Below are positions 2,767-45,233 of a stretch of DNA of 64,000 nucleotides, one piece after another; position 1 is the stretch's first letter, and every line of letters begins with the position of its first letter. The stretch is from contig JAAXIC010000029.1 of NCBI GenBank assembly GCA_012270555.1, positions 11,601-75,600 on the forward strand, in the 5' to 3' direction. The notes beneath the pieces are model-generated. The model saw only the letters and a list, made by a program, of their open reading frames with translations, was not told where the DNA came from and did not search any database. The position numbers and the translations under genes are program-made. This DNA is from Chloroflexota bacterium. GTDB taxonomy: Bacteria; Chloroflexota; UBA11872; VXOZ01.

Positions 2767-3121
2767 ACCGAGCCAAGAACTGCCCCACAGCACTATTCCC
2801 GGGTTAGGCGGACTCACGTCTGGTCGCGTGTCGTCACTTATTACTGTTGCACATCAAGCAGCCGCGCTCATAAGATGCAGTAGGGGTGTCCACATAATCT
2901 GTAGGCAAGCGTCTCCCACTGCCGTGTCGACTAGCGACCGCCTCCTGGCAATTAGATCGACATGTTCCCCATTGGCAGCAAGTACAGGGGTTTCGGCAAA
3001 ATTACTGTATTGTCGTCTCCCGTACAAAACCCTGGTAGAGAGCGTGCTATGCTCACAGAAGATGCACAGTTCGCATTTTCGCCGGTTTGTGTCCACACCC
3101 GCGGGGGAACGGAAGGGCCGT

Positions 3122-3895
3122 ATGAGGAACATCCACGCACCCTCTCGCAAAACTGATCCGCGAACAAACTTGCGGGGGAACGGTCGGTTGGGGCTTTATA
3201 GCCATACCCTTTCTTGCATCTCCAAGCTGGACATCTTTGCGGATCTCTTACCCCACGAGGTCAGCGAGATAGACCACTCCAGCGCGACAGTGAGAATACG
3301 CAAGGGTGGCGTGATCTACACCCCTGAAGAGCGTCGGGAAACGCTCTTCCTCATCAAAGAAGGGCGCGTACAGCTCTACCGCATCTCAATTGAGGGTCGG
3401 AAACTCGTTCTCGCCATGCTGGGGCCGGATATGTTCTTTGGGGAAATGCCCCTCTTTGGACAAGCCATGGAGGATTCGATAGCCCAGGCCGTGGACGACA
3501 CGACGCTCTGTACGCTTGGCCGCGCGGAAGTGGAGCGCATCCTGCTCACCTACCCCCGGATCGGCCTGCGCCTCATCCAGGTGCTCAACGAGCGTCTGCA
3601 AGAGGCCGAGACACGCTTGCACGAGAGCGCCTTCATGACCATGCCGGCCCGCACGGCGGCCTTGCTCCTGCGGCTGGCAGAGGACTCGGACGAGATCCAG
3701 GGACTCACCCACCAGGACTTGGCGGACATGCTCGGCGTCTATCGCGAAACCGTAACGGCGACGTTGGACAAATTAAAGCAGGAAAAGTTGCTGGAAATCG
3801 GCCGCAAGCGAATCAGTTTGACCAATCGCTCCGCGCTAGAAGACCTCATTCAAGGGGCGCCGAATACCCATTCACAAGGAGAAACGCACCGATGA
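3122..3895 (+). CDS. Crp/Fnr family transcriptional regulator
   Basis: cNMP-binding domain (GGVIYTPEERRETLFLIKEGRVQLY…FFGEMPLF) plus C-terminal Crp HTH (LTHQDLADMLGVYRETVTATLDKL). ORF track start 2759 gives a 120-aa Ser/Arg/Cys-rich non-protein-like extension. ATG 3122 preceded by GGAAGG at -12 preferred; ATG 3062 is an alternative. Confidence 0.7.
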   Translation: MRNIHAPSRKTDPRTNLRGNGRLGLYSHTLSCISKLDIFADLLPHEVSEIDHSSATVRIRKGGVIYTPEERRETLFLIKEGRVQLYRISIEGRKLVLAMLGPDMFFGEMPLFGQAMEDSIAQAVDDTTLCTLGRAEVERILLTYPRIGLRLIQVLNERLQEAETRLHESAFMTMPARTAALLLRLAEDSDEIQGLTHQDLADMLGVYRETVTATLDKLKQEKLLEIGRKRISLTNRSALEDLIQGAPNTHSQGETHR

Positions 3896-5118
3896 ATCCA
3901 ACAGCCCGCAAGCTGATGAGCCGCCGCAACATCCTCCTGGCTGCCGGCACAGCTACGGTTGGGCTCGTTGCCGCCGTGGCCTGCGGACAGATGCCGGAGG
4001 ACGCGGCCGTAGAGGAAGTCGAGGAAGCCGTGACGCCGCAAGCGGAAGCCGTGCAGCCCTCGCCCTCACCGGACCTTCCCGCAAATCTCCAGTTTTCCAC
4101 GTATGGCTGGAAGACAGACTTCTCCAAGCACAGCGTGCCACTGGACGAGATCAGCTCCGGCGGCCCTGGGAAAGACGGCATTCCGTCCATTGATGAGCCG
4201 CTATTCATCACACCTGAAGAGGCAACGCTTGACGTCGGCGATCATGAGCCAGTAGTGGCCGTGGACATCAATGGCGAAGCGAAAGCCTACCCAATCAATA
4301 TCCTGGTCTGGCACGAAATCGTAAACGATACCATCGGCGGCGTGCCGGTGACAGTCACGTTCTGCCCGCTCTGCAATACCGCCATTGCTTTTGATCGCCG
4401 CCTCGATGGCACTGTCTATGACTTTGGTGTGAGCGGCAACTTGCGGTACAGCGACCTCATCATGTACGACCGCCAGACCGAGAGTTGGTGGCAGCAGATC
4501 ACGGGCACGGCCATCGTCGGCGCACTCACCGGCAAGAAACTGACCCCGGTGCCGGCGTCAATGGTCTCGTTCTTGGACTTCCGCACTACGTATCCGGCAG
4601 CCGTTGTGCTATCGCGCGATACCGGCTTCCTGCGATCGTACGGCAGAAACCCGTATCTCGGCTATGACAATATTTCCAATTCACCGTTCCTGTTCTTCGA
4701 ACCTGTTGACGGACGACTCCCGGCCATGGAGCGAGTGGTCACAGTATCGTTGAATGGTGAAGACGCCGCCTACCCGTTTAGCGTGCTTGCGGAGCAAAAG
4801 GTGGTTGCAGATACCGTGGGTGGAGAATCGATTGTGGTCTTTCATCAACCCGGCGTGGACTCTCCCTTCTCGGGAACGGACATTGGCGCGGCCGGTGTCT
4901 TTGCGCCAACCGTTGACGGCGAGACCCTGAAGTTCACCGTGAATGACAAAGGGGAGATTCGGGATACGGAAACGCAATCGAAGTGGAACGTCCTCGGCCG
5001 GGCAGTTGCAGGTCCCCTGGAGGGTAAGCAACTCCAATCCATCATAAACGGCAACCACTTCTGGTTCGCTTGGGCGGTCTTCAAGCCCGAAACGCGCGTT
5101 TTTAGCTTGCCCAACTAA
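3892..5118 (+). CDS. DUF3179-family Tat-secreted lipoprotein
   Basis: ATGA overlap with crp stop (translational coupling). Twin-arginine motif SRRNILLAAG, lipobox AVAC, conserved FCPLCNT motif typical of DUF3179. Confidence 0.65.
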   Translation: MNPTARKLMSRRNILLAAGTATVGLVAAVACGQMPEDAAVEEVEEAVTPQAEAVQPSPSPDLPANLQFSTYGWKTDFSKHSVPLDEISSGGPGKDGIPSIDEPLFITPEEATLDVGDHEPVVAVDINGEAKAYPINILVWHEIVNDTIGGVPVTVTFCPLCNTAIAFDRRLDGTVYDFGVSGNLRYSDLIMYDRQTESWWQQITGTAIVGALTGKKLTPVPASMVSFLDFRTTYPAAVVLSRDTGFLRSYGRNPYLGYDNISNSPFLFFEPVDGRLPAMERVVTVSLNGEDAAYPFSVLAEQKVVADTVGGESIVVFHQPGVDSPFSGTDIGAAGVFAPTVDGETLKFTVNDKGEIRDTETQSKWNVLGRAVAGPLEGKQLQSIINGNHFWFAWAVFKPETRVFSLPN

Positions 5119-5567
5119 ACCAACAAGACTCCACCACAAGTTCATTGACGCCATGACGGCCGTGATAATTCACGGCCGTCATGTGTTTAATTTGTCAAGA
5201 CCGTCTGAGACTTGGTGCGTCTGGCTCCGCAGAGCAATAGAGATTGCGTGCAAAGTCCATCCTGCAAGGGACTAGGCGACAAGTGCTACCTAGAGCCCTT
5301 ACCCCAAGGGACCGCCTGATTCCATCCCGCTTTAGTTTGTTCTAGCGAAATACTCATATATCACCTACTCTATGGATTTGACATGTGTTTAGATGTATGA
5401 TAGGGTCGCTAAACGGATAATGGTTATGTATTGAAAAGCGACAAAACTATTAGAATTTTCCTGGTAGGCTGAACTAAGCAGTGCGATGAAAGGGACAGTA
5501 GGTGCCGGTCTGGGCAGGAAGCGGCAGGCACGGTCACTCAACCGGAAGAGGGTTAGGACAAAGCGCT

Positions 5568-8549
5568 ATGGCTCGTTTGCGTGCGTTGCTCCGTGCAGTT
5601 TCGCTTTGGGGTTCTATCAAGCGCATAGTGCCTGAGGTGGGGCGGCTTGGCATAGGGTTCGCGCTGGCGGCGGCGCTGAGCTTGGTCTTTGCCTCGGTAG
5701 CGCAGGCGCAGACGGACAGCGGGGAGAGTGGTGTTCCGAGGCTGACGATAGCGCGGTCGCACGCATCGGTGGTGAAGGGGGAGGAGGCGACATTCACCAT
5801 CACGGCGAGCAGCGCGCCGAGCGCGGACCTCGATGTATACGTGCAGGTACAGGTAACGGTCAGGGAGCGGTCGCTGTATCAGAGCAAGGTCATAGTGGTG
5901 TCTATGGCGGCGGGGGAGCGGACGATAGAGTTCATAGCGGGAACGGGCGGTAGCGAAGTAGGCGAGGGGACGCTGACGCTTGACGTGAGCATACTGGGTG
6001 GCAGCGGCTATCGCTTGGGGGAGACACAGGTGGCAGGCATTCGGGTGACGGATCCCCCACCGGCAGCAGGGACGAGGCAAGGAGTGCCCGCAGCGCCGTC
6101 GGGCTTCACGGCCAGTGCGGTAGCTGAAGACAGCATCGCGGTGAGTTGGACTGGTGTGGCAGGGGTGTCACGCTATCGGCTGGAGAAGCAGCTTGGGTCG
6201 CTTGGCATTGTGATGTGGAGAGTGGTGGGAGGACTGGATAGTATTGCGCAGACGAGCGCGACGGTGGCGGGCTTGCGGTCCGGGACGCAGTATCAGTACA
6301 GAGTGCGGGCCTACAATGCGGCAGGGTGGGGTGTCCCATCGTCAAGCGCAAGCGCCACGACCCAGGGAGTGCAGGGGCAAACTACCGATTTGGTGGGAGT
6401 GCGCGCCGCGCCGCCCACGCCGGGCGGGTTCAGCGCGAGCGCGCCGAATCATTTCACCATCAAGGCGAGTTGGAACGCGGTGACTGGAGCCAATTGCTAT
6501 CGGTTTGGCGTCTGGATTCACACAATTGGGTACCCGGCGGGTTGGCATTACAAGAATACGCCGGCAACGAGTTACACGTGGACGGGGGGTATTGACCGGG
6601 GCACGACGTACGACATAAGAGTAGCGGCAGCGAACGTTGATGACTGCCCCCCTGATGAGACAATTTCTGCGGAGTGGAGCGCTGATAGTTGGTTGAAAGT
6701 GACGACGCCCCGCCCTGATCCGCCGGCGCCCTCTGGGTTTAGCGGCAGCGCAACCGGCACCCATAGCATCAGCGCGAGTTGGGACCGGGTGGTTGGCGCC
6801 AGCAAGTATGAGTTTGGCATCAAGACAGGCACTCCCGGCAGTTGGAAATCCAAAGAAGTCTCAAGTCCGGCGACGAGCACGACGTGGAGTACGGGTCTGG
6901 CTCCGAACACGACGTATGAAATACGCGTGAGGGCCCACGGCGACCGCCATTGGCTTGCATTCGTGTGGGGTCCCTATAGTGAGGCGGAAGTGACTACCGA
7001 CGAAACATCGACACCGCCACCACCGCCGCCACCGCCGCCACCATCCAAATTGGCTACGCCAAAAGTTGACATCGTCCCGCTGCCGCAGCGCAAGGTGCGG
7101 TTGCAGTGGCAGGCAGTGACAGGCGCATCCGGGTATACCGTGCAGATTCAGAAGAGGGGTGGAAACTGGTCATCGCCTTCGCCTAGAGAAGAGACTCAAG
7201 GAGCCAACGAAACCTCTTACGATATCAACCTCATGGACATCTATGGAGGCGAGGGCCTAGCCCACGATACCAATGGCTTTGAATTTCGCGTAATGGCGAA
7301 GCATTCAGACTCAAACAGGAACAGCGCTTACAGTGCTGACATCATCGTCAGAGACAGTCCAAGTGTCACCGTCAACGGGCATAGTTCGAATAGGAATACG
7401 GCTGTAGTCAAGTGGAAAGCGCCAAGGAACGCCAAAGAGTACTTCGTGCGCTGGCGGGTGCTTGGAGATGACGCGAGCGGAAATGCTTATACGAGTCCTG
7501 GCTGGCATTTGGATGCAAGTTCTCTGCCAGCATCGACGTTCGCGCCGACTACTGCGACACCCTCTCCTACGTCGCTTACTTTGACAGCGCCTACAACTAT
7601 CGAGCATACGATTAGCGGCCTGACGCCGGGGGCGCTCCACGCCGTTCAAGTGGTATATCGGATCGACGACGGCTGGGTCTTCTCCGGTCGAGACGCCTAT
7701 GTATGGACTTCGAAGAATAAGCCTGCTCCTCTCACAAGAGTAGCGGGGTACCCCTTCTACGGTCATTTTGCGAACAAAACATATGCATATAGGATTTGCA
7801 AGAGTACGTTCGGTACAGACAGCAATACTTGGGCATTGATGATCGAGCATGCGTTGATGCAGTGGCAGAAGGCGACGAACGGCCTGATCTCAATGGTGCC
7901 TGAACATGACACGAGTAACCCAAATCATAGGCCAACTTCCCCGGAATACAAACCGTGTACGCAATACTCTTCATTCTTTGATGTATTTCTCTACACATTT
8001 GACGACCGCGAGCGGAGCGAAATCCGCATGATTAACCCGCCAAACAACGCTCCCTACCCGTGGGCCTTCTACGTTTACGAGATCGCGGCGGACCTCCTAA
8101 AGCATTGCCTGGTTAATAGCATAGCTTGCGTTACCGCGCCTGGCTTAATCGGCAAGCCTATCGAGGCGAGTACTGAGTTCCAAAGTGCGGACATTACCTT
8201 CAATTTTGATGAAGTGGAGGAAAAAAAGCTTAGTCCCGCAGTGCCTTCAGACGTGGTTTTCAATTCGTGTGTTATCAATGCAAATCCTCAGCCAAACGAC
8301 ATAAGACAATTGCCTAACAAGACTTGGACATCTGACCAATACGCCGCATATGCAGTTACAGTCCATGAAGGGGGACACGCGTTGGGTATTGGGGGCATCG
8401 AGATTGATCTGGCCACATTCACAGTCCTGGCAAGAGGCGCTCACCCAAGCACCGGAGACGCGGTGCTCAACTACACTTGGTCGGAACCGGACTGCGCGCC
8501 GCATCCGTTGGACATCATGGCGATTCACGCACTCTATCAGTCGCCCTAG
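5568..8549 (+). CDS. secreted multi-domain protein: beta-sandwich domain + multiple fibronectin type III domains + Pro10 linker + C-terminal metzincin-like zinc metalloprotease domain
   Basis: Signal peptide MARLRALL…FASVAQA (ATG 5568; ORF track GTG 5502 alternative). Repeated FN3 signatures (SWTGVAGVSRYRLEK…YQYRVRAYNAAGWG; SWDRVVGASKYEF…YEIRVRAHG). PPPPPPPPPP linker. Metzincin N-terminal motif YRICKS…ALMIEHALMQWQKATNGLISMV and HEGGHALGIGG (HExxHxxGxx but third ligand is Gly); Met-turn position reads AVLNY. Confidence 0.8.
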   Translation: MARLRALLRAVSLWGSIKRIVPEVGRLGIGFALAAALSLVFASVAQAQTDSGESGVPRLTIARSHASVVKGEEATFTITASSAPSADLDVYVQVQVTVRERSLYQSKVIVVSMAAGERTIEFIAGTGGSEVGEGTLTLDVSILGGSGYRLGETQVAGIRVTDPPPAAGTRQGVPAAPSGFTASAVAEDSIAVSWTGVAGVSRYRLEKQLGSLGIVMWRVVGGLDSIAQTSATVAGLRSGTQYQYRVRAYNAAGWGVPSSSASATTQGVQGQTTDLVGVRAAPPTPGGFSASAPNHFTIKASWNAVTGANCYRFGVWIHTIGYPAGWHYKNTPATSYTWTGGIDRGTTYDIRVAAANVDDCPPDETISAEWSADSWLKVTTPRPDPPAPSGFSGSATGTHSISASWDRVVGASKYEFGIKTGTPGSWKSKEVSSPATSTTWSTGLAPNTTYEIRVRAHGDRHWLAFVWGPYSEAEVTTDETSTPPPPPPPPPPSKLATPKVDIVPLPQRKVRLQWQAVTGASGYTVQIQKRGGNWSSPSPREETQGANETSYDINLMDIYGGEGLAHDTNGFEFRVMAKHSDSNRNSAYSADIIVRDSPSVTVNGHSSNRNTAVVKWKAPRNAKEYFVRWRVLGDDASGNAYTSPGWHLDASSLPASTFAPTTATPSPTSLTLTAPTTIEHTISGLTPGALHAVQVVYRIDDGWVFSGRDAYVWTSKNKPAPLTRVAGYPFYGHFANKTYAYRICKSTFGTDSNTWALMIEHALMQWQKATNGLISMVPEHDTSNPNHRPTSPEYKPCTQYSSFFDVFLYTFDDRERSEIRMINPPNNAPYPWAFYVYEIAADLLKHCLVNSIACVTAPGLIGKPIEASTEFQSADITFNFDEVEEKKLSPAVPSDVVFNSCVINANPQPNDIRQLPNKTWTSDQYAAYAVTVHEGGHALGIGGIEIDLATFTVLARGAHPSTGDAVLNYTWSEPDCAPHPLDIMAIHALYQSP

Positions 8550-8593
8550 GTGCTACAGGATGCGCACGAAGGAAATCAAGTGAGACGGGAGAA

Positions 8594-10291
8594 ATGATGA
8601 TGCAGGCAAGAAAGAAGCTCCGGGCGGGCTTGTTGGTATTAGGGTTCTCGTTGTTGGCGCTATTGTCTTTGGCCTGTGGCGGCGTCCAAGTTCCGCCGGC
8701 AAGTATAGCACGGTCCTATTCTACTGTTTACTGGTCGCCTGACGGCTCGCGGATTGTCTTTTCTCGCGGTGCGCAAGGGACGTTCGTGGTTGACGTTGGG
8801 GGCACACGCTTGCACACCATCCCACCTGATACAGCGATTGGGGAAGAATGGGAACCGGGCAGCGTTTCAGCGGCGCTCTCTCCTGATGGATCGCGCGTAG
8901 CGTACGTTGCGGTGTTCAATGCCAGTTTCCTTGCTGGTAACTTCAACGCTGAAATCATGAGCGCAAGGGTAGATGGCACTGATGTGCAGAGGCTTACACG
9001 CTCCCGCCAGAGTCATCTTGACGACACGTTGCCTTCGTGGTCGCCTGATGGGCGCCGAATTGCATTTGGAACGAGAGGGACTGGGGGTGGTCACAAGCTA
9101 GCAGTCATGAACGCTGATGGCTCCAACGTGCTGATACTCACTCAGCGTTTGCCCTACTTCTTTCTTGATAGTCCGCCAGTGTGGTCTCCTGACGGCGATT
9201 GGATTGGGTTCTTGGGCCGCCATCCGGAAGAGGGTGTGAGCACTCAACGTCTCGCACTTCACATGGTGCGTTCGGATGGAACGGAAGTCTTGAATCTTGG
9301 CGCGGCGGCAAGCCCGCCCGCCTGGTCGCCGGACGGCAGCAGGATTGCGTTCTTTCAGGACACTGAAGGGGGAATGGCGCTGTATGCGGCGAATGGAGAC
9401 GGCACGGAAAAGCGGATGTTGTTGGCGCTAGGTCAAGACCATGAGTGGTATGTAGGTGATCATTCGTGGTCGCCGGATGGTTCGGAGCTTCTCTTTACCG
9501 CTTACAAGAGAGATGACAGATCTTGGATTGGCCACACCATTAGCGTTGAGAACGGAAACATCCTCACCGAGTTTGCAGGAGTAGTGGCCGCATGGTCGCC
9601 GGATGGGTCGCGCATCGCGGTACAGACGAGGATTTGCAAGGGCGGCTACCTGAGCGACTGCAATCCAGACTTCTTGCAGGATGTCTTGTACACGATAGCG
9701 CGGGATGGCACGGATAGGCAGGTGCTGGTGCGCGGCTCGGCCACAGAAATGATTCTGGGCGCCGATTGGTATGACGTGTCCGCAGACGTTGCTGCATGCG
9801 CTGAGTTGCACGCGGGTAACCCGGGCTTGGTAGCAGACTGCCGGACGCTGTTGACGATACGCAATGCGTTGGCAGGCGATTCCTTCCTGAACTGGAGCGC
9901 TGACGTTCCCATAAGCGAGTGGGAAGGCGTATGGGTGGAAGGCGAGCCACCGCGGGTGCGGGGATTGGCGCCCGGTAGTGGAGCCGGCGACCCTAAGTTG
10001 AAGGGGGTAATTCCACCGGAGCTGGGAAACCTGAGTGAGTTGTGGCTGCTAGACCTGGGGAGTAATGATCTCACTGGGAGTATTCCGTCAGAGTTGAGCA
10101 ACCTCAGCAAGTTGGAATATTTAAATCTCCAACACAACATGCTGACCGGAGACATACCGCCGGAGTTGGGGAACCTAAAGGAGCTGGGAGAACTGATCAT
10201 CAACGGCAACGATCTAACCGGCTGTGTACCCCAGGCATTATCCGCAACTGTGACTAAATTCTATTCCGATGGATTGGAATACTGCGAGTGA
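8594..10291 (+). CDS. lipoprotein with TolB-like PD40 beta-propeller and C-terminal plant-specific leucine-rich repeats (eukaryote-like protein)
   Basis: Triple ATG at 8594/8597/8600 after GGGAG; lipobox LSLAC. Repeated WSPDGSRIAF/WSPDGDWIGF PD40 motifs. LRRNT-like cap (CRTLLTIRNALAGDSFLNWSAD…WEGVWVEG). 24-residue PS-LRRs (LTGSIPSELSNLSKLEYLNLQHNMLTGDIPPELGNL) ending in Cys cap (TGCVPQALS…DGLEYCE). Confidence 0.85.
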   Translation: MMMQARKKLRAGLLVLGFSLLALLSLACGGVQVPPASIARSYSTVYWSPDGSRIVFSRGAQGTFVVDVGGTRLHTIPPDTAIGEEWEPGSVSAALSPDGSRVAYVAVFNASFLAGNFNAEIMSARVDGTDVQRLTRSRQSHLDDTLPSWSPDGRRIAFGTRGTGGGHKLAVMNADGSNVLILTQRLPYFFLDSPPVWSPDGDWIGFLGRHPEEGVSTQRLALHMVRSDGTEVLNLGAAASPPAWSPDGSRIAFFQDTEGGMALYAANGDGTEKRMLLALGQDHEWYVGDHSWSPDGSELLFTAYKRDDRSWIGHTISVENGNILTEFAGVVAAWSPDGSRIAVQTRICKGGYLSDCNPDFLQDVLYTIARDGTDRQVLVRGSATEMILGADWYDVSADVAACAELHAGNPGLVADCRTLLTIRNALAGDSFLNWSADVPISEWEGVWVEGEPPRVRGLAPGSGAGDPKLKGVIPPELGNLSELWLLDLGSNDLTGSIPSELSNLSKLEYLNLQHNMLTGDIPPELGNLKELGELIINGNDLTGCVPQALSATVTKFYSDGLEYCE

Positions 10292-10496
10292 CTGTGAGAC
10301 TGCAAGAGCCGATATACCTGATCTACTTTGTGGAGTGAAGTTTGGTGTAGACAATGATGATAGGTGCGTGGCTTCACACCCTGTCACTGTCGACTCGGTG
10401 ATGAGCTACGATTCTGAAACTGGTGTGAATGAGCCGGACTGTGCGCCGCACCCGCTGGACATCATGGCGATATTCTCGTTGTATCAATCCCCATAG
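10292..10496 (+). pseudogene. remnant of metzincin C-terminal domain (decayed tandem-duplicate fragment)
   Basis: Last about 45 codons (…HPVTVDSVMSYDSETGVNEPDCAPHPLDIMAIFSLYQSP*) align to the C-terminus of the 5568..8549 gene (…HPSTGDAVLNYTWSEPDCAPHPLDIMAIHALYQSP*), about 90% nt identity over the core. No HExxH or catalytic domain upstream; retains serralysin-like Met-turn SVMSY. Confidence 0.5.
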
Positions 10497-10536
10497 TTCC
10501 CACTGATAGCGTGAAGTGAGGCGGGAGAAGACAGTG

Positions 10537-12579
10537 CTGACATTGAAGAAGCTCAGGGCAGGTTCGTTAGTAGTGGGGATATTGTTGTTGGCGTTATCGT
10601 CATTGGGCTGCAGTAATGGGCAGATCCCGCCGGCATGGGATGCCAATCCGTATTCAACGTTGAACTGGACACCAGACAGTACGCAGATTGTCTTTTCGCG
10701 CTCCGTTCAGGGGACGTTCGTGGTTGACGTTACGGGCACGCGCTTGCACACCATACCAACGAACGCGCCGCTTGGGGATCTTTATCATCCAGGCAGTGTC
10801 GCAGCGGCACTTTCACCTGATGGATCGCGGGTAGCATACGTTGCTTTATTCTCTGACGGCTTATATGGGGCATCCAACGCTGAAATCATGATCGCAAGCA
10901 TAGCTGGTACAAGTGTCCGCAGACTTACACGAAATGTAGACTCCCATGATACGCATCCCGTGTGGTCGCCGGACGGGAACTACATTGCCTACTTGTCTGG
11001 TGACAAACTTGCCGTGATGACTGTAGACGAAGGGAACGTGCAGGCACTTCCGTTGTCAGTTGTTTCCGGGGGATTTGGGCCGGTTTGGTCGCCCGACGGC
11101 AGTAGGCTTGCATACTTGGTTTGGGATGAAGAGATCGCGCATGGAGTCCCTTACGTCATGCGGCTCGATGGATCGGACATCGTGAAGCTAGGCGATGCGG
11201 TTGTGGTTGGTGAACCGGCTTGGTCGCCCGACGGTAGCAGGATTGCGTACTTGGGCTTCGAGGAAAGTGAAGATGACAAAGTTCTCTACGTGGCACGGCC
11301 GGATGGATCGGAAGTCTTGGACCTTGGGAAGGCAGCAAGCCCGCCGGCCTGGTCGCCGGACGGCAATAGGATTGCATTCTTCCAGCAAGAAAAAGGATTG
11401 AGGCTGTATACGGCGAATCCAGACGGGACGGGCAGACGGCTGGTCTTGACGCTCGGGAGAATTGGTGAGTGGCGGCCCGGCGCGCTTTCATGGTCGCCGG
11501 ATGGCTCGACGCTTCTCTTTGCCAGTTACTACCTTTCCATTTACGAGAGGTATGAACAAGGGCCGTGGCATCTCGTCAACATAGAGGACGAAAAAATCGT
11601 TGCCGACTTTGAGGGGGAAACTCCTGAGTGGTCGCCAGACGGTTCGCGTATAGCCGTGCTCGCCAATATGTGCAAGCGCTTTGGTGACGGTGGATTCATG
11701 GAAGACTGTGATCCCAACGATCAGGACGTGCTGTACACGCTGGCGCGAGACGGGACGGATAGGCAGGTATTGGTGCGTGCGACGAATGATCGTCAGAGTA
11801 CGAAGTACGAGCGTCTGAATGCGGACTTCATACGCCGCGACGTGCCGCGCCGCCAGGCGGTGTGTGCAGTGCGCTACGCCGATAACGCCGGCTTGTCGCA
11901 GGATTGCGAGACGCTGCTGGCGCTGCGCGACAAGTTAGGTGGGGATGCCTTCCTCAATTGGCACAATTCTATCCCCATGGCACGGTGGCAAGGGGTCACC
12001 ATTGAGGGAAATCCTCCGCGCGTACACGGACTGCATATCCCTATAGCTAGCGGGGCGTCACCGGTGCTGAAGGGTGTTCTACCATCGGAGTTGGGCAATC
12101 TCAGCGAATTGCGCCGGATAGATTTCAGCGGCAATGCCTTAACAGGGGAGTTGCCGGCTGAGCTAGGCAATCTGATCAAGTTGGAACGCTTGGTTCTGTA
12201 CGAAAACAACCTGACCGGGAGTATTCCGGCAGAGCTAGGCAACTTGAGCGCATTGCAGGGATTGTATTTGGGCGGGAATGACCTGAGTGGGAGTATACCG
12301 GCGGAGTTGGGCAACCTCGCGAAGCTGGAGGAGTTGGACCTAAAGGACAATTCCCTAACGGGAAGTATTCCAGCAGCGTTGGACAACCTGAACGAGGTTA
12401 AAGTGCTCTTGCTACAAGATAACGGTCTAACTGGCAGCCTCCCACCTGAGTTAGGAAACCTTGAGAACCTGAAAACGCTCGATGTCTCGGGCAACGATCT
12501 AACGGACTGCGTGCCGAAAGTGTTGTCCGAACGTACGCCTAATGTCTTTACCGATGGATTGGAATCGTGTGCGGAGTGA
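10537..12579 (+). CDS. lipoprotein with PD40 beta-propeller and plant-specific LRRs (paralog of 8594..10291)
   Basis: GTG 10537 after GGGAG (GTG 10516 alternative); N-term aligns with paralog (LKKLRAGSLVVG vs ARKKLRAGLLVLG); lipobox LSSLGC. WSPDGxxIA(Y/F) repeats, LRRNT cap (CETLLALRDKLGGDAFLNWHNS), 6 PS-LRRs, Cys cap (TDCVPKVLS…DGLESCAE). Confidence 0.85.
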   Translation: MTLKKLRAGSLVVGILLLALSSLGCSNGQIPPAWDANPYSTLNWTPDSTQIVFSRSVQGTFVVDVTGTRLHTIPTNAPLGDLYHPGSVAAALSPDGSRVAYVALFSDGLYGASNAEIMIASIAGTSVRRLTRNVDSHDTHPVWSPDGNYIAYLSGDKLAVMTVDEGNVQALPLSVVSGGFGPVWSPDGSRLAYLVWDEEIAHGVPYVMRLDGSDIVKLGDAVVVGEPAWSPDGSRIAYLGFEESEDDKVLYVARPDGSEVLDLGKAASPPAWSPDGNRIAFFQQEKGLRLYTANPDGTGRRLVLTLGRIGEWRPGALSWSPDGSTLLFASYYLSIYERYEQGPWHLVNIEDEKIVADFEGETPEWSPDGSRIAVLANMCKRFGDGGFMEDCDPNDQDVLYTLARDGTDRQVLVRATNDRQSTKYERLNADFIRRDVPRRQAVCAVRYADNAGLSQDCETLLALRDKLGGDAFLNWHNSIPMARWQGVTIEGNPPRVHGLHIPIASGASPVLKGVLPSELGNLSELRRIDFSGNALTGELPAELGNLIKLERLVLYENNLTGSIPAELGNLSALQGLYLGGNDLSGSIPAELGNLAKLEELDLKDNSLTGSIPAALDNLNEVKVLLLQDNGLTGSLPPELGNLENLKTLDVSGNDLTDCVPKVLSERTPNVFTDGLESCAE

Positions 12580-12623
12580 CAGCAGAGCCACGCTAGTTCG
12601 TCTACTGTATTGAGATTAGTGGG

Positions 12624-15600
12624 ATGTCAGGAATGAGAAGGCTTTTTACAAGTGCAGTGGTACTAGGGCTGCTCGTGATGATCGGGGCGGTTGTGGGATG
12701 TAGTGGGATATCCGGCGGTCACGTCATGCAAGATGCGCCATTGGACACGCCTTTGGCCGAGTCCCAAACACCAACGCAGAAAGACACGCCGCCTGAGAAT
12801 ACACTCAGGCTAGAAGCTGACAAACTAATGAACAGTCAGCCCCGCGACGTCAGCCGCTTCAACCTCTTTGCAGTGAAACCGTTAGGAGCAGCATCTGTAG
12901 GTGATGTAGAAGCCGACAGTTTAGAGGACGTGTTGGAGAAGGGGCTGCGCTTGGCCCAGGCTTCTCCGGTGCATTTAGCGGTGCGCGGAACGGGCGTGAA
13001 TAACTCGGTCCGTTGTGCATGGCGAGGCGTGGCCAGAACTGCGACACAACGAGAACAGGCAGTCAGGTTCTGGTTGGAACTCGCCACTGCTGATCCGCTG
13101 CCGTCGGCAGCGGAGGTGGAGCGCCGTTTCACGGCTGAGTTGAATCGGATAAGAGTGTTGTTGCCGGAGACCGCTAAGGCTAATTTTAGATCCCTTGCGC
13201 AGGGCGGCCTGTCGATCGAGTATCTCTTCCTGACCTGCTACGTGGACTACACTGCCAGTGAGTACATTCTGGGCGCGGGGCCGACTACGCTCACGCTGGC
13301 CTACGACCACATGGCGGAAACACGTTCATATGATCTTTACAGCCGGGCGCACACGGCGGGAGAATTTGGCGGTGATGCGCTGTTGTCTGCGACTGAGTAC
13401 CAAGCCGGGCTCGACCAGATGGTCGCTGACGCGGAGGATGCGCTGAGTGGGATAGTAGAGGGACGGGAGAGCGTGGTATTCTTGGCACCCATGGGGGCGC
13501 ATCACGCGATTGCGATTGAGGCGTGGCAGGTCGTTGATCAGTGGGACGTGCAGACGGTGGACGGCGTGGTGAACGCGGTGCGGTACGGGGCGTATGCCGG
13601 CGACCCGGAGCATACGCAGACGCTGGCGGGGTTGAAGACGCGGGTCACGACGGCGGCAGCGAGTGATGCGTTTGTGAACAAGCGGATTGCCAACGCCAGC
13701 GGCTTGCAGGCGCACTATAGGAGTATCGGGGCGTATGGCGACATCACGCCGGACGATGGCGAGACGACGACGTTCACCCCGGCGCAACCGCCGCCGCTGC
13801 GGGTCTGCGCCAACGGCACGGCGGTGCCCAGTCCCCGAGATAACCGCGCGCTGGTGCTGGACTGTGGGACGCTATTGGAACTGAAGGACACCCTGGTTGG
13901 CACGGCGACGCTGAACTGGAGCGCGAGCACGGCGCTCACGAGTTGGGACGGGGTGACGACGGGCGGCACGCCGAGCCGGGTGACCAGGCTGCGACTGGCG
14001 AGCAAGAGCCTGAGCGGGAGCATTCCGGTGGAATTAGGCACGCTGAATGCCTTGACCCACCTGGACCTGAGCAGCAATTCCCTGACTGGGGAGATTCCGG
14101 AGGAATTGGGATTGCTGGAGAATCTGGTAGAGCTGAAGCTTTCCGGCAACACGTTCACAGGATGCATACCGCTGGCGCTGGAGGACGTGACCACGAACGA
14201 CCTGAGCAGCCTGAATATCCTCTACTGCCTGGAGGAACCGCCCGCGCCGGAGGACCTCAGCGTGTCTCTGGCCGACGACACGTTCACCCTCAGTTGGACT
14301 GCCGTCACCGGCGCGGACCAGTACCGGGTGCAGTACAGAACCGGCGGCTCTGAGAGCGAGTGGACGAGCCTAGATGCCGTGACGACTGCCAGCCAGACGC
14401 TTAGTCCCGAGGATGGGCCCTTATGTGAGACGACCTATGAGTTTCGCGTGCAGGCGCACGGCGACGGCATTGCCCTCGCTGCCGAGTGGGGCGAGCCGTC
14501 CGCGGCGGTCTCGCACACCACGGGAACCTGCAACCTCCCGCCTGTGTTCGCCGTCGAATCCTACGCCTTCACAGTATCCGAGGACGCTTCTCCGTGGCCT
14601 GAGGTGAGCGTCTTGGGAACCGTTTCGGCAACCGACCCGGACGAGGGAGATACGCCGTTCTACTACATAACTGCCGGGAATGAGGCTGGGCAGTTCGGAA
14701 TAGACGGGAGCCGAGGGGAAATTCTGGTCTGGCGCGCTCTGGACCACGAGACGGCCTCATCGTACACGTTGACGGTGGAGGCGCGGGATGGGAAGGAGAA
14801 CGGCACGGCATCGGTGACAGTTGAAATCACTGTCTCCGAGGGTCCCCCACCCGCGCCGGAGGACCTCAGCGTGTCCCTTGCGGAAGGCGTGTTTACTATC
14901 TCATGGAGCGAGTTGACGGGAGCAGACCGGTACCGAGTGCAGCACAGAACCGGTGGCGAAGAGGGTGAGTGGACGAACCTGGATGCCGTGACGGCTGCCA
15001 GCCAGACGTTCAGCCCAGAGGGCGGCGCCATATGCGGCACGACTTACGAGTTCCAGGTGCAGGCCCGGGGAAATGGCATTGCCTATGTAGCCGGGTGGGG
15101 AGAATTCTCCGAGTCCGCTTCGCACACGACCGAAGCGTGCAATCTGCCGCCCGCGTTCGACTCTGCGACGTATACCTTCACGGTTGCCGAGGATGCTGCC
15201 ACCAGCACGGCCGTCGGCTCCGTTTCCGCCACCGATCCCAATGAGAATGACAGTGTGACCTACTCAATCACTGCAGGCAACGGCGACGGCACGTTTTCCA
15301 TAGACGGCAGCAGCGGGAGCATTGCGGTCGCTGCCGCCCTGGATTATGAGACCACCACGGCGTACTCACTAACGGTGCAGGCCAGCGACGGCAAGGAGGA
15401 TGGCACGGCGACGGCAACAGTCGCGATCACTGTCACCAACGTGGCGGAAGATCCTCCGCCCGCGCCGGAGGACCTCAGCGTGTCTCTGGCCGACGACACG
15501 TTCACCCTCAGTTGGACTGCCGTCACCGGTGCGGACCAGTACCGGGTGCAGTACAGAACCGGCGGCTCTGAGAGTGAGTGGACGAGCCTGGATGTCGTGA

Positions 15601-16991
15601 CCGCTGCCAGCCAGACGTTCAGCCCAGAGGGTGGCGCCTTATGCGGGACGACTTATGAGTTCCAGGTGCAGGCACACGGCGACGGGGAGACCTACCTTGT
15701 CGAGTGGGGAGAGTTCTCCGAGTCCGCTTCGCACACGACCGAAGCGTGCAATCTCCCGCCCGCGTTCGGCTCTGCGACATACACCTTTACGATAGCTGAA
15801 GACGCTGACATAGGTACGACCGTTGGCACCGTCTCCGCCACCGACCCCAACCCCAACGATGGGGACAGTGTGACCTACTCAATCACTGCGGGCAACGGCG
15901 ACGGTACGTTCTCCATAAACGGCAGCAGCGGGAGCATTACGGTCGCCGCCGCGCTGGATTACGAGACCACCATGGCGTACTCGCTGACGGTGCAGGCCAG
16001 CGACGGGAAGGAAGGCGGCACGGCGTTCGCGACGGTCGAGATCACGATCACCGACGTGGCGGAAGATCCCCCGCCCGCGCCGTATAGACTGCCCTCGGTC
16101 TACAATGACGGCGTGTTCCAGCTCAGTTGGAGGTCCGTCGCTGGCGCAGACCAGTACCGGGTGCAGTACCGTATCGGCGGCGACGCGGGTACCTGGATCA
16201 ACTTGGCCGCCACGACGAACACATACCAGTTTTTTACCCTGGAGGGCGGAATTACGTGCGGGACGACCTATGAGTTCCGCATGCAGGCGCGTGGCGACGG
16301 GGAGACCTACCCCGCTATCTGGGGTTCACCATCCAGCGCCGCCATATTCACTGCCCACCCTTGCAACCAGGCGCCTGCGTTTGGCTCTGCGACGTATGAC
16401 TTCACGGTAGCCGAGGACTCTGCCACGGGCACGGCCGTTGGCACTGTTTCCGCCACCGACCCCGACAGCGGGGATAGCGTGACCTATTCGATCACCGCCG
16501 GCAATGGCGACGGCAAGTTTTCCATAGACGGCAGCAGCGGGAGCATTACGGTTGCCGCCGCGCTGGATTACGAGACCGCAACGTCGTACACGCTGACGGT
16601 GCAGGCCAGCGACGGGAAGAAGGATGGCACGGCGACAGCGACGGTCGCAATCAGCGTCACCAACGTGGCGGAAGCTCCTCCGCCCGCGCCGGAGGACCTG
16701 ACCGGCACGGTCACGCACAACAGCGTCACGCTCTCGTGGGACGCGCCCGATGACACCACCGTCACGAGCTACCAGATACTGCGGCGCAGACCCGACCACG
16801 GCGAGACAGAGTTGCTGGTGCACGTAGCCGATACCGAGAGCATTGACGATACCGAGAGTATCGAGACCACGTACACGGACACGGATGTGGCGCCCGGCAC
16901 CCGCTACGTGTACCGGGTCAAGGCCATTAACGCTATCGGTCTGGGTCCGTTCTCAAAGCCCGTGACCGTGACTACTGCGCAACAGCCCTAG
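12624..16991 (+). CDS. giant lipoprotein: N-terminal unknown domain + PS-LRR module + four tandem [FN3 + cadherin] units + terminal FN3
   Basis: Lipobox VVGC. LRRNT-like cap (CANGTAVPSPRDNRALVLDCGTLLELKDTL…NWSAS…WDGV) then LSGSIPVELGTLNALTHLDLSSNSLTGEIPEELG. Four about 200-aa units starting PPAPEDLSVSLA with FN3 (YRVQYRTGG…YEFQVQAHGDG) then cadherin-like repeat (…VSATDPN…ITAGNGDGTFSIDGSSGSI…LDYET…YSLTVQASDGK). 1455 aa. Confidence 0.85.
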   Translation: MSGMRRLFTSAVVLGLLVMIGAVVGCSGISGGHVMQDAPLDTPLAESQTPTQKDTPPENTLRLEADKLMNSQPRDVSRFNLFAVKPLGAASVGDVEADSLEDVLEKGLRLAQASPVHLAVRGTGVNNSVRCAWRGVARTATQREQAVRFWLELATADPLPSAAEVERRFTAELNRIRVLLPETAKANFRSLAQGGLSIEYLFLTCYVDYTASEYILGAGPTTLTLAYDHMAETRSYDLYSRAHTAGEFGGDALLSATEYQAGLDQMVADAEDALSGIVEGRESVVFLAPMGAHHAIAIEAWQVVDQWDVQTVDGVVNAVRYGAYAGDPEHTQTLAGLKTRVTTAAASDAFVNKRIANASGLQAHYRSIGAYGDITPDDGETTTFTPAQPPPLRVCANGTAVPSPRDNRALVLDCGTLLELKDTLVGTATLNWSASTALTSWDGVTTGGTPSRVTRLRLASKSLSGSIPVELGTLNALTHLDLSSNSLTGEIPEELGLLENLVELKLSGNTFTGCIPLALEDVTTNDLSSLNILYCLEEPPAPEDLSVSLADDTFTLSWTAVTGADQYRVQYRTGGSESEWTSLDAVTTASQTLSPEDGPLCETTYEFRVQAHGDGIALAAEWGEPSAAVSHTTGTCNLPPVFAVESYAFTVSEDASPWPEVSVLGTVSATDPDEGDTPFYYITAGNEAGQFGIDGSRGEILVWRALDHETASSYTLTVEARDGKENGTASVTVEITVSEGPPPAPEDLSVSLAEGVFTISWSELTGADRYRVQHRTGGEEGEWTNLDAVTAASQTFSPEGGAICGTTYEFQVQARGNGIAYVAGWGEFSESASHTTEACNLPPAFDSATYTFTVAEDAATSTAVGSVSATDPNENDSVTYSITAGNGDGTFSIDGSSGSIAVAAALDYETTTAYSLTVQASDGKEDGTATATVAITVTNVAEDPPPAPEDLSVSLADDTFTLSWTAVTGADQYRVQYRTGGSESEWTSLDVVTAASQTFSPEGGALCGTTYEFQVQAHGDGETYLVEWGEFSESASHTTEACNLPPAFGSATYTFTIAEDADIGTTVGTVSATDPNPNDGDSVTYSITAGNGDGTFSINGSSGSITVAAALDYETTMAYSLTVQASDGKEGGTAFATVEITITDVAEDPPPAPYRLPSVYNDGVFQLSWRSVAGADQYRVQYRIGGDAGTWINLAATTNTYQFFTLEGGITCGTTYEFRMQARGDGETYPAIWGSPSSAAIFTAHPCNQAPAFGSATYDFTVAEDSATGTAVGTVSATDPDSGDSVTYSITAGNGDGKFSIDGSSGSITVAAALDYETATSYTLTVQASDGKKDGTATATVAISVTNVAEAPPPAPEDLTGTVTHNSVTLSWDAPDDTTVTSYQILRRRPDHGETELLVHVADTESIDDTESIETTYTDTDVAPGTRYVYRVKAINAIGLGPFSKPVTVTTAQQP
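14230..16680 (+). repeat. intragenic tandem repeat, four units of about 610 bp (FN3-cadherin modules)
   Basis: Unit starts near 14240, 14846, 15454, 16078 (and terminal partial at 16676) all begin ccgcccgcgccggaggacctcagcgtg or close variant. Units 1 and 3 share long identical nt runs (e.g. gacgacacgttcaccctcagttggactgccgtcaccgg…gaccagtaccgggtgcagtacagaaccggcggctctgag). Confidence 0.8.
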
Positions 16992-40510: not shown

Positions 40511-40513
40511 GGA

Positions 40514-41221: not shown

Positions 41222-41288
41222 TTCTTGTGGGTGGAACGTCAGGAATGGAATTCGGGGTTCCACCACGAAGCACTCTGCAGCCAAGGAC

Positions 41289-41933: not shown

Positions 41934-42045
41934 CGTGCACTCCTTTTGGCGTAGAAGATGGGCTTTGCCTCAACGCGAAAGAGACAATCAGCCTTGCAGA
42001 CCGGGAGTTGGCGGCCTACTTCTAGGAAACCCAGAATGTACGTCG

Positions 42046-42120: not shown

Positions 42121-42210
42121 CTGTTCTTCTTTATGATACCAGACCGCTGCGGCGCACCACAGACCGCGAGAGATGGGGTCACTAGCTCGAATGAGGAAGG
42201 GAACAGTAGT

Positions 42211-45223: not shown

Positions 45224-45233
45224 CAATGCTACC

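Follow-up and report, generated by a model that had tools for sequence, protein, structure and literature searches.

Paralogous propeller-LRR lipoprotein genes and an intervening protease stump in a Chloroflexota surface-protein cluster

Introduction

The propeller of TolB has six blades. Genes A and B, described here from a 64-kb stretch of a metagenome scaffold of an uncultured Dehalococcoidia bacterium (the window), resemble the TolB/PD40 family (PF07676) in their repeated [WL]SPDG..I.F blades, which match PD40, and in having TolB structures among their Foldseek matches. Unlike TolB, their products contain 7-8 blade motifs, score 103 and 99 bits on NCBIfam TIGR02800 (cut-off 343), lack the TolB N-terminal domain, and carry a lipoprotein signal in place of a plain signal peptide and an LRR domain at the C-terminus. 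The setting also differs from Tol-Pal: the organism belongs to Chloroflexota and no Tol-Pal genes lie near A and B. S9 peptidases, DPP-IV and tricorn protease likewise tie a PD40-type propeller to a peptidase and are the top structural matches to the propeller half; here, in contrast, two neighboring genes supply the propeller and the protease as distinct polypeptides, the latter being a metallo- rather than a serine peptidase. Gating of the protease by the propeller, as in those enzymes, is speculation by analogy.

The LRR part is closest to plant LRR receptor ectodomains and PGIP, with which it shares 24-residue LxxLxLxxNxL(t/s)GxIPxxLGx units and N- and C-terminal Cys-pair caps; the best Foldseek matches are MIK2, GSO1, FLS2, ERL1 and BRL2 (30-42% identity). 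Unlike the plant receptors, A and B have only 4-7 repeats, a propeller fusion and a bacterial lipoprotein signal, and lack a transmembrane helix, a kinase and a Pfam LRRNT_2 match. The same LRR profiles are matched by the Xanthomonas type III effectors XopL, XopAC and XopAE (NCBIfam E 1e-17 to 4e-11 for gene B), but gene B scores far below the cut-offs (64 versus 600 bits), and those effectors are injected and carry enzymatic domains, whereas A and B are predicted to be surface proteins exported by the Sec/lipoprotein route and bearing a propeller.

Serralysin operons carry an inhibitor gene as the immediately downstream partner, and the inhibitors known for serralysins fold as small beta-barrels instead of propellers. 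The protease family represented upstream of gene A resembles serralysins and matrixins (MEROPS M10) in its HExxHxxG motif, Met-turn (S-V-M-x-Y) and terminal helix (D-I-x-A-I-x-x-L-Y), which align to serralysin, and it too has a partner gene immediately downstream. It differs in scoring below the M10 threshold (23 versus 24 bits), in the Leu at the Met-turn of the window copy, in its position at the very end of long FN3-rich proteins, on the C-terminal side, and in the replacement of the canonical third His (HExxHxxGxxH), with a conserved His-Pro following a variable insert of 15-55 residues, an arrangement resembling that of leishmanolysin. Finally, clusters of LRR, FN3 and cadherin proteins recall the 'eukaryote-like' repeat and adhesion proteins of sponge symbionts; that literature gives domain counts and describes neither the PD40+LRR fusion nor the metzincin linkage (PMC8163846).

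Results

Gene cluster

Genes A and B are neighbors on the same strand (open reading frames 8477/8594/8600-10291 and 10516/10534-12579) within a cluster of four same-strand genes for secreted FN3, LRR and cadherin proteins, of which gene C is the last (Table 1). The frame of the upstream protease gene is open from 5502 and that of gene B from 10516, and gene A has an alternative ATG at 8594; the public starts of A and B each lie 6-9 nt 3′ of a GGGAG Shine-Dalgarno sequence. Because a terminator was found before the cluster (5152-5183) and no terminator-like site was found inside 5502-16991, a single operon is plausible.

Table 1. Features of the protease-propeller region, in window coordinates.
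Feature	Position	Strand	Basis
Secreted multi-FN3 protein, 993 aa by public gene call; C-terminal divergent metzincin-like domain, ~7773-8549	5568..8549	+	ORF, Pfam, family profile
Spacer between protease gene and gene A, with Shine-Dalgarno GGGAG; 3′ part conserved upstream of gene B	8550..8599	+	Sequence and alignment
Gene A: lipoprotein, 563 aa; 7 PD40 blade motifs, two-Cys helical cap, 1 irregular + 3 canonical 24-residue plant-type LRRs, two-Cys C-terminal cap	8600..10291	+	ORF, Pfam, BLASTP, alignment, public gene call
Copy of the spacer found downstream of gene A orthologues, perhaps with a few codons of the gene that comes after it	10292..10360	+	87% identity over 38 nt to L084 11687-11724
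Metzincin 3′ stump, ~43 codons (..ASHPVTVDSVMSYDSETGVNEPDCAPHPLDIMAIFSLYQSP*); conserved His-Pro, Met-turn and terminal helix; no HExxH	10368..10496	+	HMM positions 189-232, E 6e-19
Spacer with conserved AAGTGAGNCGGGAGAA Shine-Dalgarno region upstream of gene B	10497..10533	+	Sequence and alignment
Gene B: paralogous lipoprotein, 681 aa; 8 PD40 blade motifs, cap, 1 irregular + 6 canonical plant-type LRRs, C-terminal cap	10534..12579	+	ORF, Pfam, BLASTP, alignment, public gene call
Gene C: large lipoprotein; two-Cys helical cap as in A and B, 3 plant-type LRRs, then four tandem FN3+cadherin units	12624..16991	+	ORF, Pfam, repeat listing

Architecture of A and B

A and B are diverged paralogues in a widespread, unnamed family of Chloroflexota surface lipoproteins in which a PD40 beta-propeller is followed by a short, disulfide-capped plant-type LRR domain. 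They aligned over their whole length by BLASTP (50% identity, E=2e-175; overall identity about 50-58%), and both matched Pfam PD40 (E 2e-26 for A, 6.5e-34 for B) and, above curated cut-offs, LRR_8/LRR_1. Both N-termini comprise a K/R-rich n-region, a hydrophobic stretch and a Cys (LSLAC and SSLGC) that is invariant across 17 homologues. An earlier note on this DNA, which had called the two genes paralogous and assigned them a lipoprotein signal, a propeller and plant-type LRRs, is confirmed on these points, although its lengths of 566 and 680 aa were superseded by the public gene calls. Its seven-bladed propeller for both holds for A and not for B, in which an additional blade of ~45 residues brings the number of [WL]SPDG motifs from 7 to 8. 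Its LRR counts of about 4 and 6 fit A, with its irregular unit included, and fall one short for B; the canonical units (3 in A, 6 in B) fit the published plant-type consensus (PMC2946307). The LRRNT cap that it proposed gave no Pfam LRRNT_2 match in A or B at E<=0.01, though a helical two-Cys cap is predicted. In the AF2 model of gene B (mean pLDDT 78.8), the LRR part matched plant LRR-receptor ectodomains at the identities given above, and the propeller matched S9 peptidases, TolB and DPP-IV.

The same note had considered the architecture undescribed. More than 100 protein clusters (90% identity) cover >80% of gene B with both PD40 and LRR domains, and no paper describing the combination was found in a literature search; PD40+LRR is therefore common in sequence databases, yet unnamed.

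The upstream protease

The gene preceding A matched Pfam fn3 (E 2e-27), and its C-terminal domain shows the motif HEGGHALG and, further on, a conserved His-Pro; the Met-turn has Leu (AVLNY), and the terminal helix reads PHPLDIMAIHALYQSP*. Matches to Pfam Peptidase_M10 reached 19-23 bits against a cut-off of 24; this was the best Pfam family for 6 of 19 members of the protease family, which comprises 506 representative clusters. When the family profile was compared with the PDB, the top of the list held metzincins only (E about 0.03), and the predicted model of the domain had a pLDDT of only 34. The product therefore appears metzincin-like by its motifs and weak profile matches, and the description 'intact metzincin gene' is borne out to that extent and not at the Pfam threshold.

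The stump and its surroundings

The motif EPDCAPHPLDIMAI(H/F)(A/S)LYQSP* occurs exactly twice in the window (8487-8549 and 10434-10496), each time just upstream of a propeller gene, as previously claimed; the copies end 45-50 nt before A and about 37 nt before B. It corresponds to the terminal helix of the metzincin catalytic domain and aligns to '..DDIAAIQKLY' of serralysin. The suggestion that a ~200-bp protease remnant precedes B was too generous: in the 205-nt gap the metzincin accounts for only about 125 nt and the remainder copies the spacer that follows A, the junction falling between about 10340 and 10372. Module B is thus collinear with module A over ~125 nt of protease 3′ end, the Shine-Dalgarno spacer, the propeller-LRR gene and ~50 nt of downstream spacer, and the remaining protease is missing. 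A continuous blastn HSP (8484-9000 versus 10431-10931, 70% identity, E 1e-61) spans the protease 3′ end and the Shine-Dalgarno-bearing spacer and runs on into the 5′ portion of the propeller gene, far beyond chance. Because this collinearity crosses gene boundaries and reaches well outside the C-terminal motif, the upstream motif is a duplication scar rather than an independent tag, as the earlier note had proposed.

The stump lies within an 80-codon open frame (10254-10496) in which none of the candidate starts offers a convincing start codon or Shine-Dalgarno sequence, and it has no gene call in public assemblies. It shows 3 amino-acid changes in 22 codons and zero stops or frameshifts; dN/dS was 0.18 across 36 codons and 0.04 across the final 22. 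It retains the family-consensus Met-turn (SVMSY) and loop, both of which are lost in the adjacent full-length protease. In simulations, the state of the stump was compatible with no more than about 0.15-0.2 neutral substitutions per site (P<0.001 for d>=0.3), and by this substitution pattern it appears too well preserved for old debris.

Synonymous divergence (dS) was 1.23 between A and B, 1.24 between B and the A-orthologue and 0.35 between A and the A-orthologue; the saturated values (pS 0.6-0.7) are imprecise. The A-B value is 3.5 times the A-to-orthologue distance, so B is no recent copy of A, and those orthologue loci lack B: in four assemblies (L084, L085, L088 and L090) the protease is followed by A and then the next gene, with stump and B absent. 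B stands at much the same distance from every A-type protein (about 50-65% identity), whereas A was 75-87% identical to P0012 in 3 of 4 segments and 65% identical in the C-terminal part of the propeller.

The module in relatives

A two-gene module is conserved in Chloroflexota MAGs: a protein ending in a divergent metzincin-like domain, 20-80 bp, then a PD40 lipoprotein with or without LRRs. From the propeller side, a PD40 gene has a protease domain or fragment immediately before it in L004, L006 (twice), L008, L045, L057, L069 (twice), L084 (twice), L085, L088 (five times), L090 (three times) and the window (twice); from the protease side, a PD40 gene lies downstream of 3 of 3 proteases. PD40-LRR genes without an upstream protease or fragment occur in L083, L086, L087 and L091. 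Truncated protease pieces are frequent in these modules and one protease is split by an insertion sequence (L084); several comparison loci are low-coverage long-read assemblies (2-12x), in which some 'split' protease genes may be frameshift errors. The family turns over: identical LRR domains are found on propellers of only 57% identity, and 7- and 8-bladed proteins occupy one syntenic site.

Discussion

Overall, the best explanation, which we favor by a modest degree, is that B belongs to an old paralogous protease-propeller module that was recently truncated or placed beside A, and that its product is a lipoprotein partner of a metzincin. From the divergence, the A/B split would be old and would precede the separation from the related A-only genomes, and the protease stump would have been under coding constraint for nearly the whole time since. 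If so, the B module would for most of that time have existed as a complete protease-plus-propeller pair. Truncation or movement next to A could have occurred by illegitimate or non-allelic recombination between paralogous modules, or alternatively by a ~2.9 kb deletion from an old full-module tandem duplicate; blade (7 versus 8) and LRR (4 versus 7) numbers may have shifted through gain and loss of repeat units, as in orthologues elsewhere. Because searches turned up neither a donor of the stump nor a full-length parent, the recent truncation or placement rests on divergence arithmetic over 36-43 codons. Gene conversion from other paralogues might mimic both the age of B and the conservation of the stump.

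The scenario of the earlier note, a single in-place tandem duplication of the last ~125 nt of the protease, the spacer, the propeller-LRR gene and ~50 nt downstream, with the protease piece dead from birth and A and B (blade and LRR numbers included) diverging in place, is unlikely but is the strongest competitor. It accounts for one collinear HSP over gene boundaries, for a stump without HExxH or a credible start codon, and for a textbook junction, in which the downstream spacer follows both copies and protease-derived DNA begins within about 30 nt of its end; a spacer joined directly to the last 125 nt of the protease is the exact product of a one-step partial tandem duplication and is structurally more parsimonious. 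It must, however, predate the split from L084, L088 and L090 by the dS values, with subsequent loss there, and a fragment dead for so long would be expected to carry at least 0.6 substitutions per site, against the few changes, the low dN/dS and the simulated limit reported above; the stump also holds ancestral consensus residues that its live neighbor has lost. Duplication followed by decay is accordingly not supported. An assembly chimera or collapsed repeat as the source of an apparent stump is barely credible: the window derives from a metagenome scaffold and paralogous modules abound, but two independent public assemblies (different ENA records; L081, 15.7 kb, and L082, up to ~16743) match it without mismatch over 5502-16742, so the region is not an assembly artefact, and in a third sample, from Tara, gene B (97% identity) is again followed by gene C.

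It is improbable, though less so than a chimera, that the stump is kept by selection, as a translated upstream mini-ORF coupling into the PD40 gene, a small peptide recognized by the propeller or a recombination anchor for shuffling of PD40 cassettes. Short protease 3′ fragments with a C.PHP.D.MAI..LYQ helix do lie directly upstream of PD40 genes elsewhere (L084 4360-4587, L088 8978-9115, L090 2459-2599 and 896-1315, L006 8864-9118), the helix of L090 2459-2599 being intact while its Met-turn part looks degenerate; the frame before B is open over 80 codons, and variation at third codon positions places the conservation at the protein rather than the nucleotide level. Such fragments, however, are seen only where the motif survives (an ascertainment bias), that of L084 is merely the gene split by the insertion sequence, and a protease or fragment is absent upstream of many PD40-LRR genes; the missing Shine-Dalgarno-bearing start and gene call, and the finding of no conserved RNA structure and no promoter-like site above background, also count against it. 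Slightly more doubtful again is a different function, in which the PD40(-LRR) lipoprotein inhibits the metzincin encoded next to it for self-protection, like the inhibitors encoded beside serralysin genes, or in which the linkage is mere co-regulation of unrelated surface proteins. The tight, conserved adjacency and the fact that, among solved structures, serralysins are closest to the protease domain speak for an inhibitor; the small beta-barrel fold of known serralysin inhibitors and the persistence of PD40-LRR genes without a protease neighbor speak against it, and since only a stump precedes gene B, its propeller protein would have a role independent of a protease of its own.

The relatives are Dehalococcoidia/Chloroflexota MAGs from series that include sponge symbionts, and LRR, FN3 and cadherin genes have been reported as enriched in sponge-associated MAGs, Chloroflexota included (PMC8163846). 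The setting is probably animal-host-associated (sponge or coral). As partners of a metzincin, the A and B lipoproteins would, judging by their signals, be tethered to the cell membrane on its outer side, where the LRR arc and propeller face may bind extracellular protein or peptide ligands. The propeller may be the conserved partner of the co-transcribed secreted metzincin, serving in docking, substrate presentation or control, and several diverged modules would provide differing binding specificities.

Organization of the surface-protein cluster

Four long ORFs lie on one strand within 5502–16991 of the window (see the table of positions). Public metagenome scaffold ROBB19-1_SAMN11878273 and a second independent assembly match the cluster with 0 mismatches, up to ~16743. 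FN3 domains in the upstream protease-bearing protein were detected with Pfam (E 2e-27), and a run of 11 prolines (PPPPPPPPPPPS; window 6980–7015, residues ~495–506 of the 1015-aa ORF) is a linker between them. Gene C carries the same cap as genes A and B, the two propeller-LRR genes, and by a repeat search its tandem FN3+cadherin units are ~609–615 nt each with 71–95% nucleotide identity; Tandem Repeats Finder reported no repeats in the cluster. A strong terminator-like hairpin (14-bp stem) was found at 5152–5183 and 0 inside the cluster, which makes transcription as one unit plausible from sequence. This hairpin bounds the cluster and lies 3′ of a gene for a DUF3179 protein (E 4.5e-105) whose N-terminus is twin-arginine-like with a lipobox; gene and hairpin together span 3892–5183. 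Elsewhere in the window, AT skew reaches 0.17–0.28 across a minus-strand block (38000–50000) containing genes for an FtsX-type permease and subunits of NADH:quinone oxidoreductase (complex I).

Positions of genes and fragments in the window and in related loci (L0xx) from other assemblies
Feature	Sequence	Position	Strand	Description
Upstream protease-bearing gene	window	5568–8549	+	993 aa by public gene calls; signal peptide, several FN3
Gene A	window	8600–10291	+	563 aa
Spacer copy in A-B gap	window	10292 to ~10340/10360		homologous to spacer 3′ of gene A orthologue in L084
Stump (metzincin 3′ piece)	window	~10368–10496		positions 189–232 of 232-position protease-domain HMM; ~43 codons
Gene B	window	10534–12579	+	681 aa
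Gene C	window	12624–16991	+	1455-aa predicted lipoprotein; cap and 3 plant-type LRRs, then four FN3+cadherin units
PD40-LRR gene, syntenic site	L083	10001–11896
PD40-LRR gene, syntenic site	L087	10001–11842
PD40-LRR gene	L091	1265–3145
Split metzincin gene, N-terminal part	L084	2592–3197
DDE_Tnp_1 transposase insertion	L084	3356–4320	-	in metzincin gene
Split metzincin gene, last ~50 codons	L084	4360–4587		directly 5′ of PD40 gene

The duplicated segment and the A-B gap

The motif EPDCAPHPLDIMAI(H/F)(A/S)LYQSP* of the earlier note has two occurrences in the window and no more, both a short way 5′ of a propeller gene. When the two regions were aligned by blastn, one continuous HSP (8484–9000 against 10431–10931, 70% identity) was obtained that runs from the end of the protease across the spacer into the 5′ portion of the propeller gene, with more collinear HSPs farther along the genes. 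Since collinearity extends well outside the motif, the motif is a duplication scar, and the proposed unit, crossing from the protease 3′ end into the propeller gene, was recovered. Two marks of a tandem segmental duplication are present: collinear homology that passes from one gene into the next, and a flank duplicated where the copies join.

The gap between A and B is 205 nt. It had been described as a protease remnant of roughly 200 bp; the protease-derived share is the stump only, and the rest includes the spacer copy, which is 87% identical to the L084 spacer over 38 nt. The CTACT.T.T.G.G block of this spacer is also found 3′ of gene B. The stump contains the conserved His-Pro, the Met-turn and the terminal helix and lacks HExxH.

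The predicted propeller-LRR lipoproteins

A and B align end to end (50% identity with gaps, E 2e-175; 58% over aligned codons), and score 91.6 and 115.6 bits, respectively, for PD40 (PF07676; curated cut-off 20.9). Blade motifs ([WL]SPDG) are spaced by 41–54 residues. The seven blades earlier ascribed to both proteins hold for A, with 7 motifs; B has 8, the extra blade comprising ~45 residues. Scores for A and B were 31.4 and 49.4 bits for LRR_8 (PF13855; cut-off 27) and 35.4 and 70 bits for LRR_1 (PF00560; cut-off 20.6). LRR units, previously put at about four and six, number 1 irregular plus 3 canonical in A, in agreement, and 1 + 6 in B. Units were assigned to the plant-specific (PS) class when 23–25 residues long and fitting the published consensus LxxLxLxxNxL(t/s)GxIPxxLGx (PMC2946307); A has 3 units that fit a strict pattern, B has 6 and gene C has 3.

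The AF2 model of gene B (mean pLDDT 78.8, LRR part >90) is all-beta across residues 45–420. Foldseek searches of the PDB returned the plant LRR-receptor ectodomains MIK2, GSO1, FLS2, ERL1 and BRL2 (30–42% identity) for the LRR half, and S9 peptidases, TolB, DPP-IV and tricorn for the propeller half. TolB identity was rejected: A and B score 103 and 99 bits against the cut-off of 343 for the TolB equivalog TIGR02800, and no Tol-Pal genes were found among the neighbors in the window. NCBIfam matches, all sub-threshold, were to TolB and to the Xanthomonas LRR effectors XopAE, XopAC and XopL.

The LRRNT cap claimed earlier was not recovered as such. LRRNT_2 (PF08263) had no match in A or B at E ≤ 0.01, and a helical cap with two conserved Cys is nevertheless predicted to precede the LRRs, so the cap is called analogous to LRRNT_2, not demonstrably homologous. 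The N-termini consist of a K/R n-region and a hydrophobic core, followed by L-S-L-A-C or S-S-L-G-C, and the lipobox-type Cys is invariant in 17 homologues; A and B would carry a lipoprotein-like signal with a putative acylation site.

Clusters (90% identity) that cover >80% of gene B and have both PD40 and LRR Pfam matches number >100, many of them from NCBI records and 0 named; the architecture is therefore not rare, contrary to what "undescribed" had implied, and a literature search found no published description of a PD40+LRR fusion. The genome matches listed are overwhelmingly Dehalococcoidia/Chloroflexota MAGs, several of them from a MAG series that also includes sponge symbionts. A scan of genome contigs gave, among the matches listed, only distant relatives (≤36% identity), and close loci were obtained through exact-protein look-ups. 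Gene B has a single close relative, P0001 from a Tara sample, on a 2.5-kb contig that begins within gene B. The putative lipoproteins that combine PD40 with plant-type LRRs are an abundant, unnamed family in Chloroflexota MAGs, a modest but real result.

The metzincin-like domain

With Peptidase_M10 (PF00413), the whole upstream protein scored 19.1 bits and the domain alone, located at 7773–8549 (last 258 residues), 23.0 bits; both are below the cut-off of 24, and the protein is not assigned to this matrixin family. Searching the single domain directly against PDB sequences gave no meaningful match, while a family profile built from 19 members returned only metzincins on top (serralysins, MMPs, archaemetzincin, myroilysin) at a marginal E of ~0.03. 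The serralysin alignment runs from HExxHxxG through S-V-M-S-Y to ..DDIAAIQKLY, from which the C-terminal "tag" of the earlier note is most readily read as the helix that closes a catalytic domain of metzincin type. HExxHxxG is invariant in 19/19 members. In place of the canonical third His, these proteins have Gly, Asp or Asn at the third ligand position, and 15–55 residues of variable insert separate this site from a conserved His-Pro. At the Met-turn, 89 family representatives have Met and 16 have Leu, and in the window the residue is Leu in the full-length protein (AVLNY) and Met in the stump (SVMSY). The AF2 model of the domain (mean pLDDT 34, 6-row alignment) was unusable, so clan membership rests on motifs and weak profile similarity, and the domain is referred to as metzincin-like.

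An exhaustive HMMER search placed 506 representative clusters in the family (E ≤ 1e-3). A word-index search with the protease domain gave 4 matches and missed the query's own protein, and word-index negatives call for caution. The terminal motif was present in 108 of the 151 sequences inspected (150 listed matches of the 506, plus the sequence P0123), ending in nearly all 108 a few residues from the C-terminus. Protein lengths were 128–2676 residues. Locus L006 contains, at 9132–9632 and directly 5′ of a PD40-LRR gene, a ~167-aa ORF with its own lipoprotein-type signal (MRRTWIIILILPLFGVLACISC) and only the HExxH-to-C-terminus portion of the domain, which, instead of being a fragment, may be a mini-metzincin in its own right.

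Linkage and turnover of the two-gene module

Three HMMs (protease domain, propeller, LRR) were run on every six-frame ORF of the fetched loci. A full or partial protease domain was found directly 5′ of a PD40 gene in L004, L006 (twice), L008, L045, L057, L069 (twice), L084 (twice), L085, L088 (five times), L090 (three times) and the window (twice). From the protease side, a PD40 or PD40-LRR gene lay 20–120 bp downstream in 3/3 proteases looked up. PD40-LRR genes also stand alone, in L083, L086, L087 and L091. Conserved linkage of the putative PD40+LRR lipoproteins to C-terminal metzincin-like domains, themselves an uncharacterised family, is a modest but real finding.

The same grade applies to the evidence for frequent rearrangement. 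The homologues P0002, P0004 and P0006 have LRR domains that are 97–100% identical and propellers that are only ~57% identical, and P0002 (8 blades) and P0006 (7 blades) occupy one syntenic site, flanked by an AMP-binding gene and TauD, on two contigs from one and the same sample. Domain-level recombination is suggested by this, as is gain or loss of a blade between orthologues. In L084, a paralogous metzincin gene (2592–4587) is split by an insertion sequence, and L088, L090 and L006 have short pieces of protease 3′ end between their PD40 genes; several module loci are long-read assemblies at 2–12x coverage, and some "split" genes may be frameshift errors.

Age and history of the gene B module

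Divergence between genes A and B, the gene A orthologue P0012 of L084, the stump and the neighboring protease
Comparison	dS	dN/dS
A vs B	1.23	0.28
A vs P0012	0.35	0.44
B vs P0012	1.24	0.28
Stump vs neighboring protease, 36 codons	1.38	0.18
Stump vs neighboring protease, last 22 codons	saturated	0.04

Judged by these values, gene B is not a recent copy of A. It is about equidistant from all A-type proteins; A and B are not each other's closest relatives, as copies that arose in place would be, A being far nearer its orthologues, and in L084, L085, L088 and L090 the protease is followed by A and then by the next gene, with stump and B both absent. Divergence of the stump is comparable to that of gene B. 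Its last 22 codons differ from the neighboring protease at 10.8 of 14.5 synonymous and 6.2 of 51.5 non-synonymous sites, its frame is open, and it retains the family-consensus SVMSY and D..TGV.EPDC loop, as in L057 and P0168; in the live neighbor and the neighbor's orthologues these are replaced by AVLNY and a 4-codon deletion. In neutral-drift simulations, the probability of ≤3 amino-acid changes and no stop fell from 0.09 at 0.15 substitutions per site to 0.02 at 0.2 and to <0.001 at 0.3, and an old fragment dead from birth is expected to have accumulated at least 0.6. The stump thus does not look like a decaying pseudogene fragment, and it was, as its codons suggest, the coding sequence of a working protease through most of its history. 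The earlier observation is essentially right; its "decay" of the second protease copy, like its "undescribed (rare)" architecture, is wrong.

Three histories fit these data, two of them better: a diverged module, paralogous or from another lineage, was joined here recently, with an illegitimate left join inside the protease and a homologous right join in the spacer or gene C; or the full module was duplicated in tandem long ago, after which ~2.9 kb was deleted recently and the sister lineage lost the B module. These two are inseparable, since searches for a parent sequence gave none: a degenerate DNA pattern of TGVNEPDCAPHPLD had 0 matches in JGI metagenome contigs, and among 151 family representatives the best C-terminus, that of P0168, is consensus-like only and no parent. 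The one-step partial duplication of the earlier note, with a stump that is selected or refreshed by gene conversion, is less likely. That the stump upstream of gene B has a function is itself improbable. Short protease fragments recur at other loci and the conservation is codon-like, but only fragments with the motif are detectable, a source of ascertainment bias; moreover, no start codon with a Shine-Dalgarno sequence was found, no gene is called there in public assemblies, RNAalifold on 20 regions from protease end to PD40 start gave 0 predicted pairs, and no promoter-like site above background was found.

Little credence is given to a broader proposal, in which the protease C-terminal-helix segment (C.PHP.D.MAI..LYQ plus spacer) would be an actively maintained portable element travelling with PD40(-LRR) genes, a homology anchor or expression leader for cassette-like shuffling and amplification of surface receptors in host-associated Chloroflexota, the stump would be a working piece of a system that diversifies receptors and not debris, and the metzincin-like domain and PD40 lipoprotein would be an unrecognised two-component surface protease system. 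Three specific candidates were rejected: a conserved RNA structure at the motif, given the absence of predicted pairs and the codon-like conservation; a promoter or terminator within the stump, with no signal above shuffled background; and a +1 frameshift that would join gene A to the frame of the stump, for which a slippery sequence is absent at GAG-TGA-C and, by sequence inspection, the frame is open for merely 12 codons before a stop.

Implications

The event type (module duplication, truncation and change in repeat number) is ordinary genome evolution. As a worked example, it illustrates that a "remnant" beside a paralogue need not be old debris, and that divergence arithmetic separates old paralogy from recent rearrangement. 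The Cys lipobox, cap disulfides and Sec-type signals would make these proteins extracytoplasmic and membrane-anchored. An LRR arc and a propeller face are classic protein- and peptide-binding surfaces. Persistent adjacency of the propeller gene to a metzincin-like gene suggests that the propeller may be a partner of the secreted enzyme in docking, substrate presentation or control, with the LRR as an added ligand-binding module, and paralogues with different blade and LRR numbers could differ in specificity. FN3/cadherin/LRR genes are reported to be enriched in sponge-associated MAGs (PMC8163846), and this, together with the FN3/cadherin/LRR giant encoded by gene C, fits a putative role in host-matrix interaction. 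The PD40 propeller and plant-type LRR family, and its pairing with a metzincin-like family of ~500 clusters, are unnamed and unstudied, in a field that so far mostly counts "eukaryote-like" domains; if the host association is true, these proteins would be candidates for the binding and processing of host matrix or peptides by uncultured sponge or coral Dehalococcoidia.
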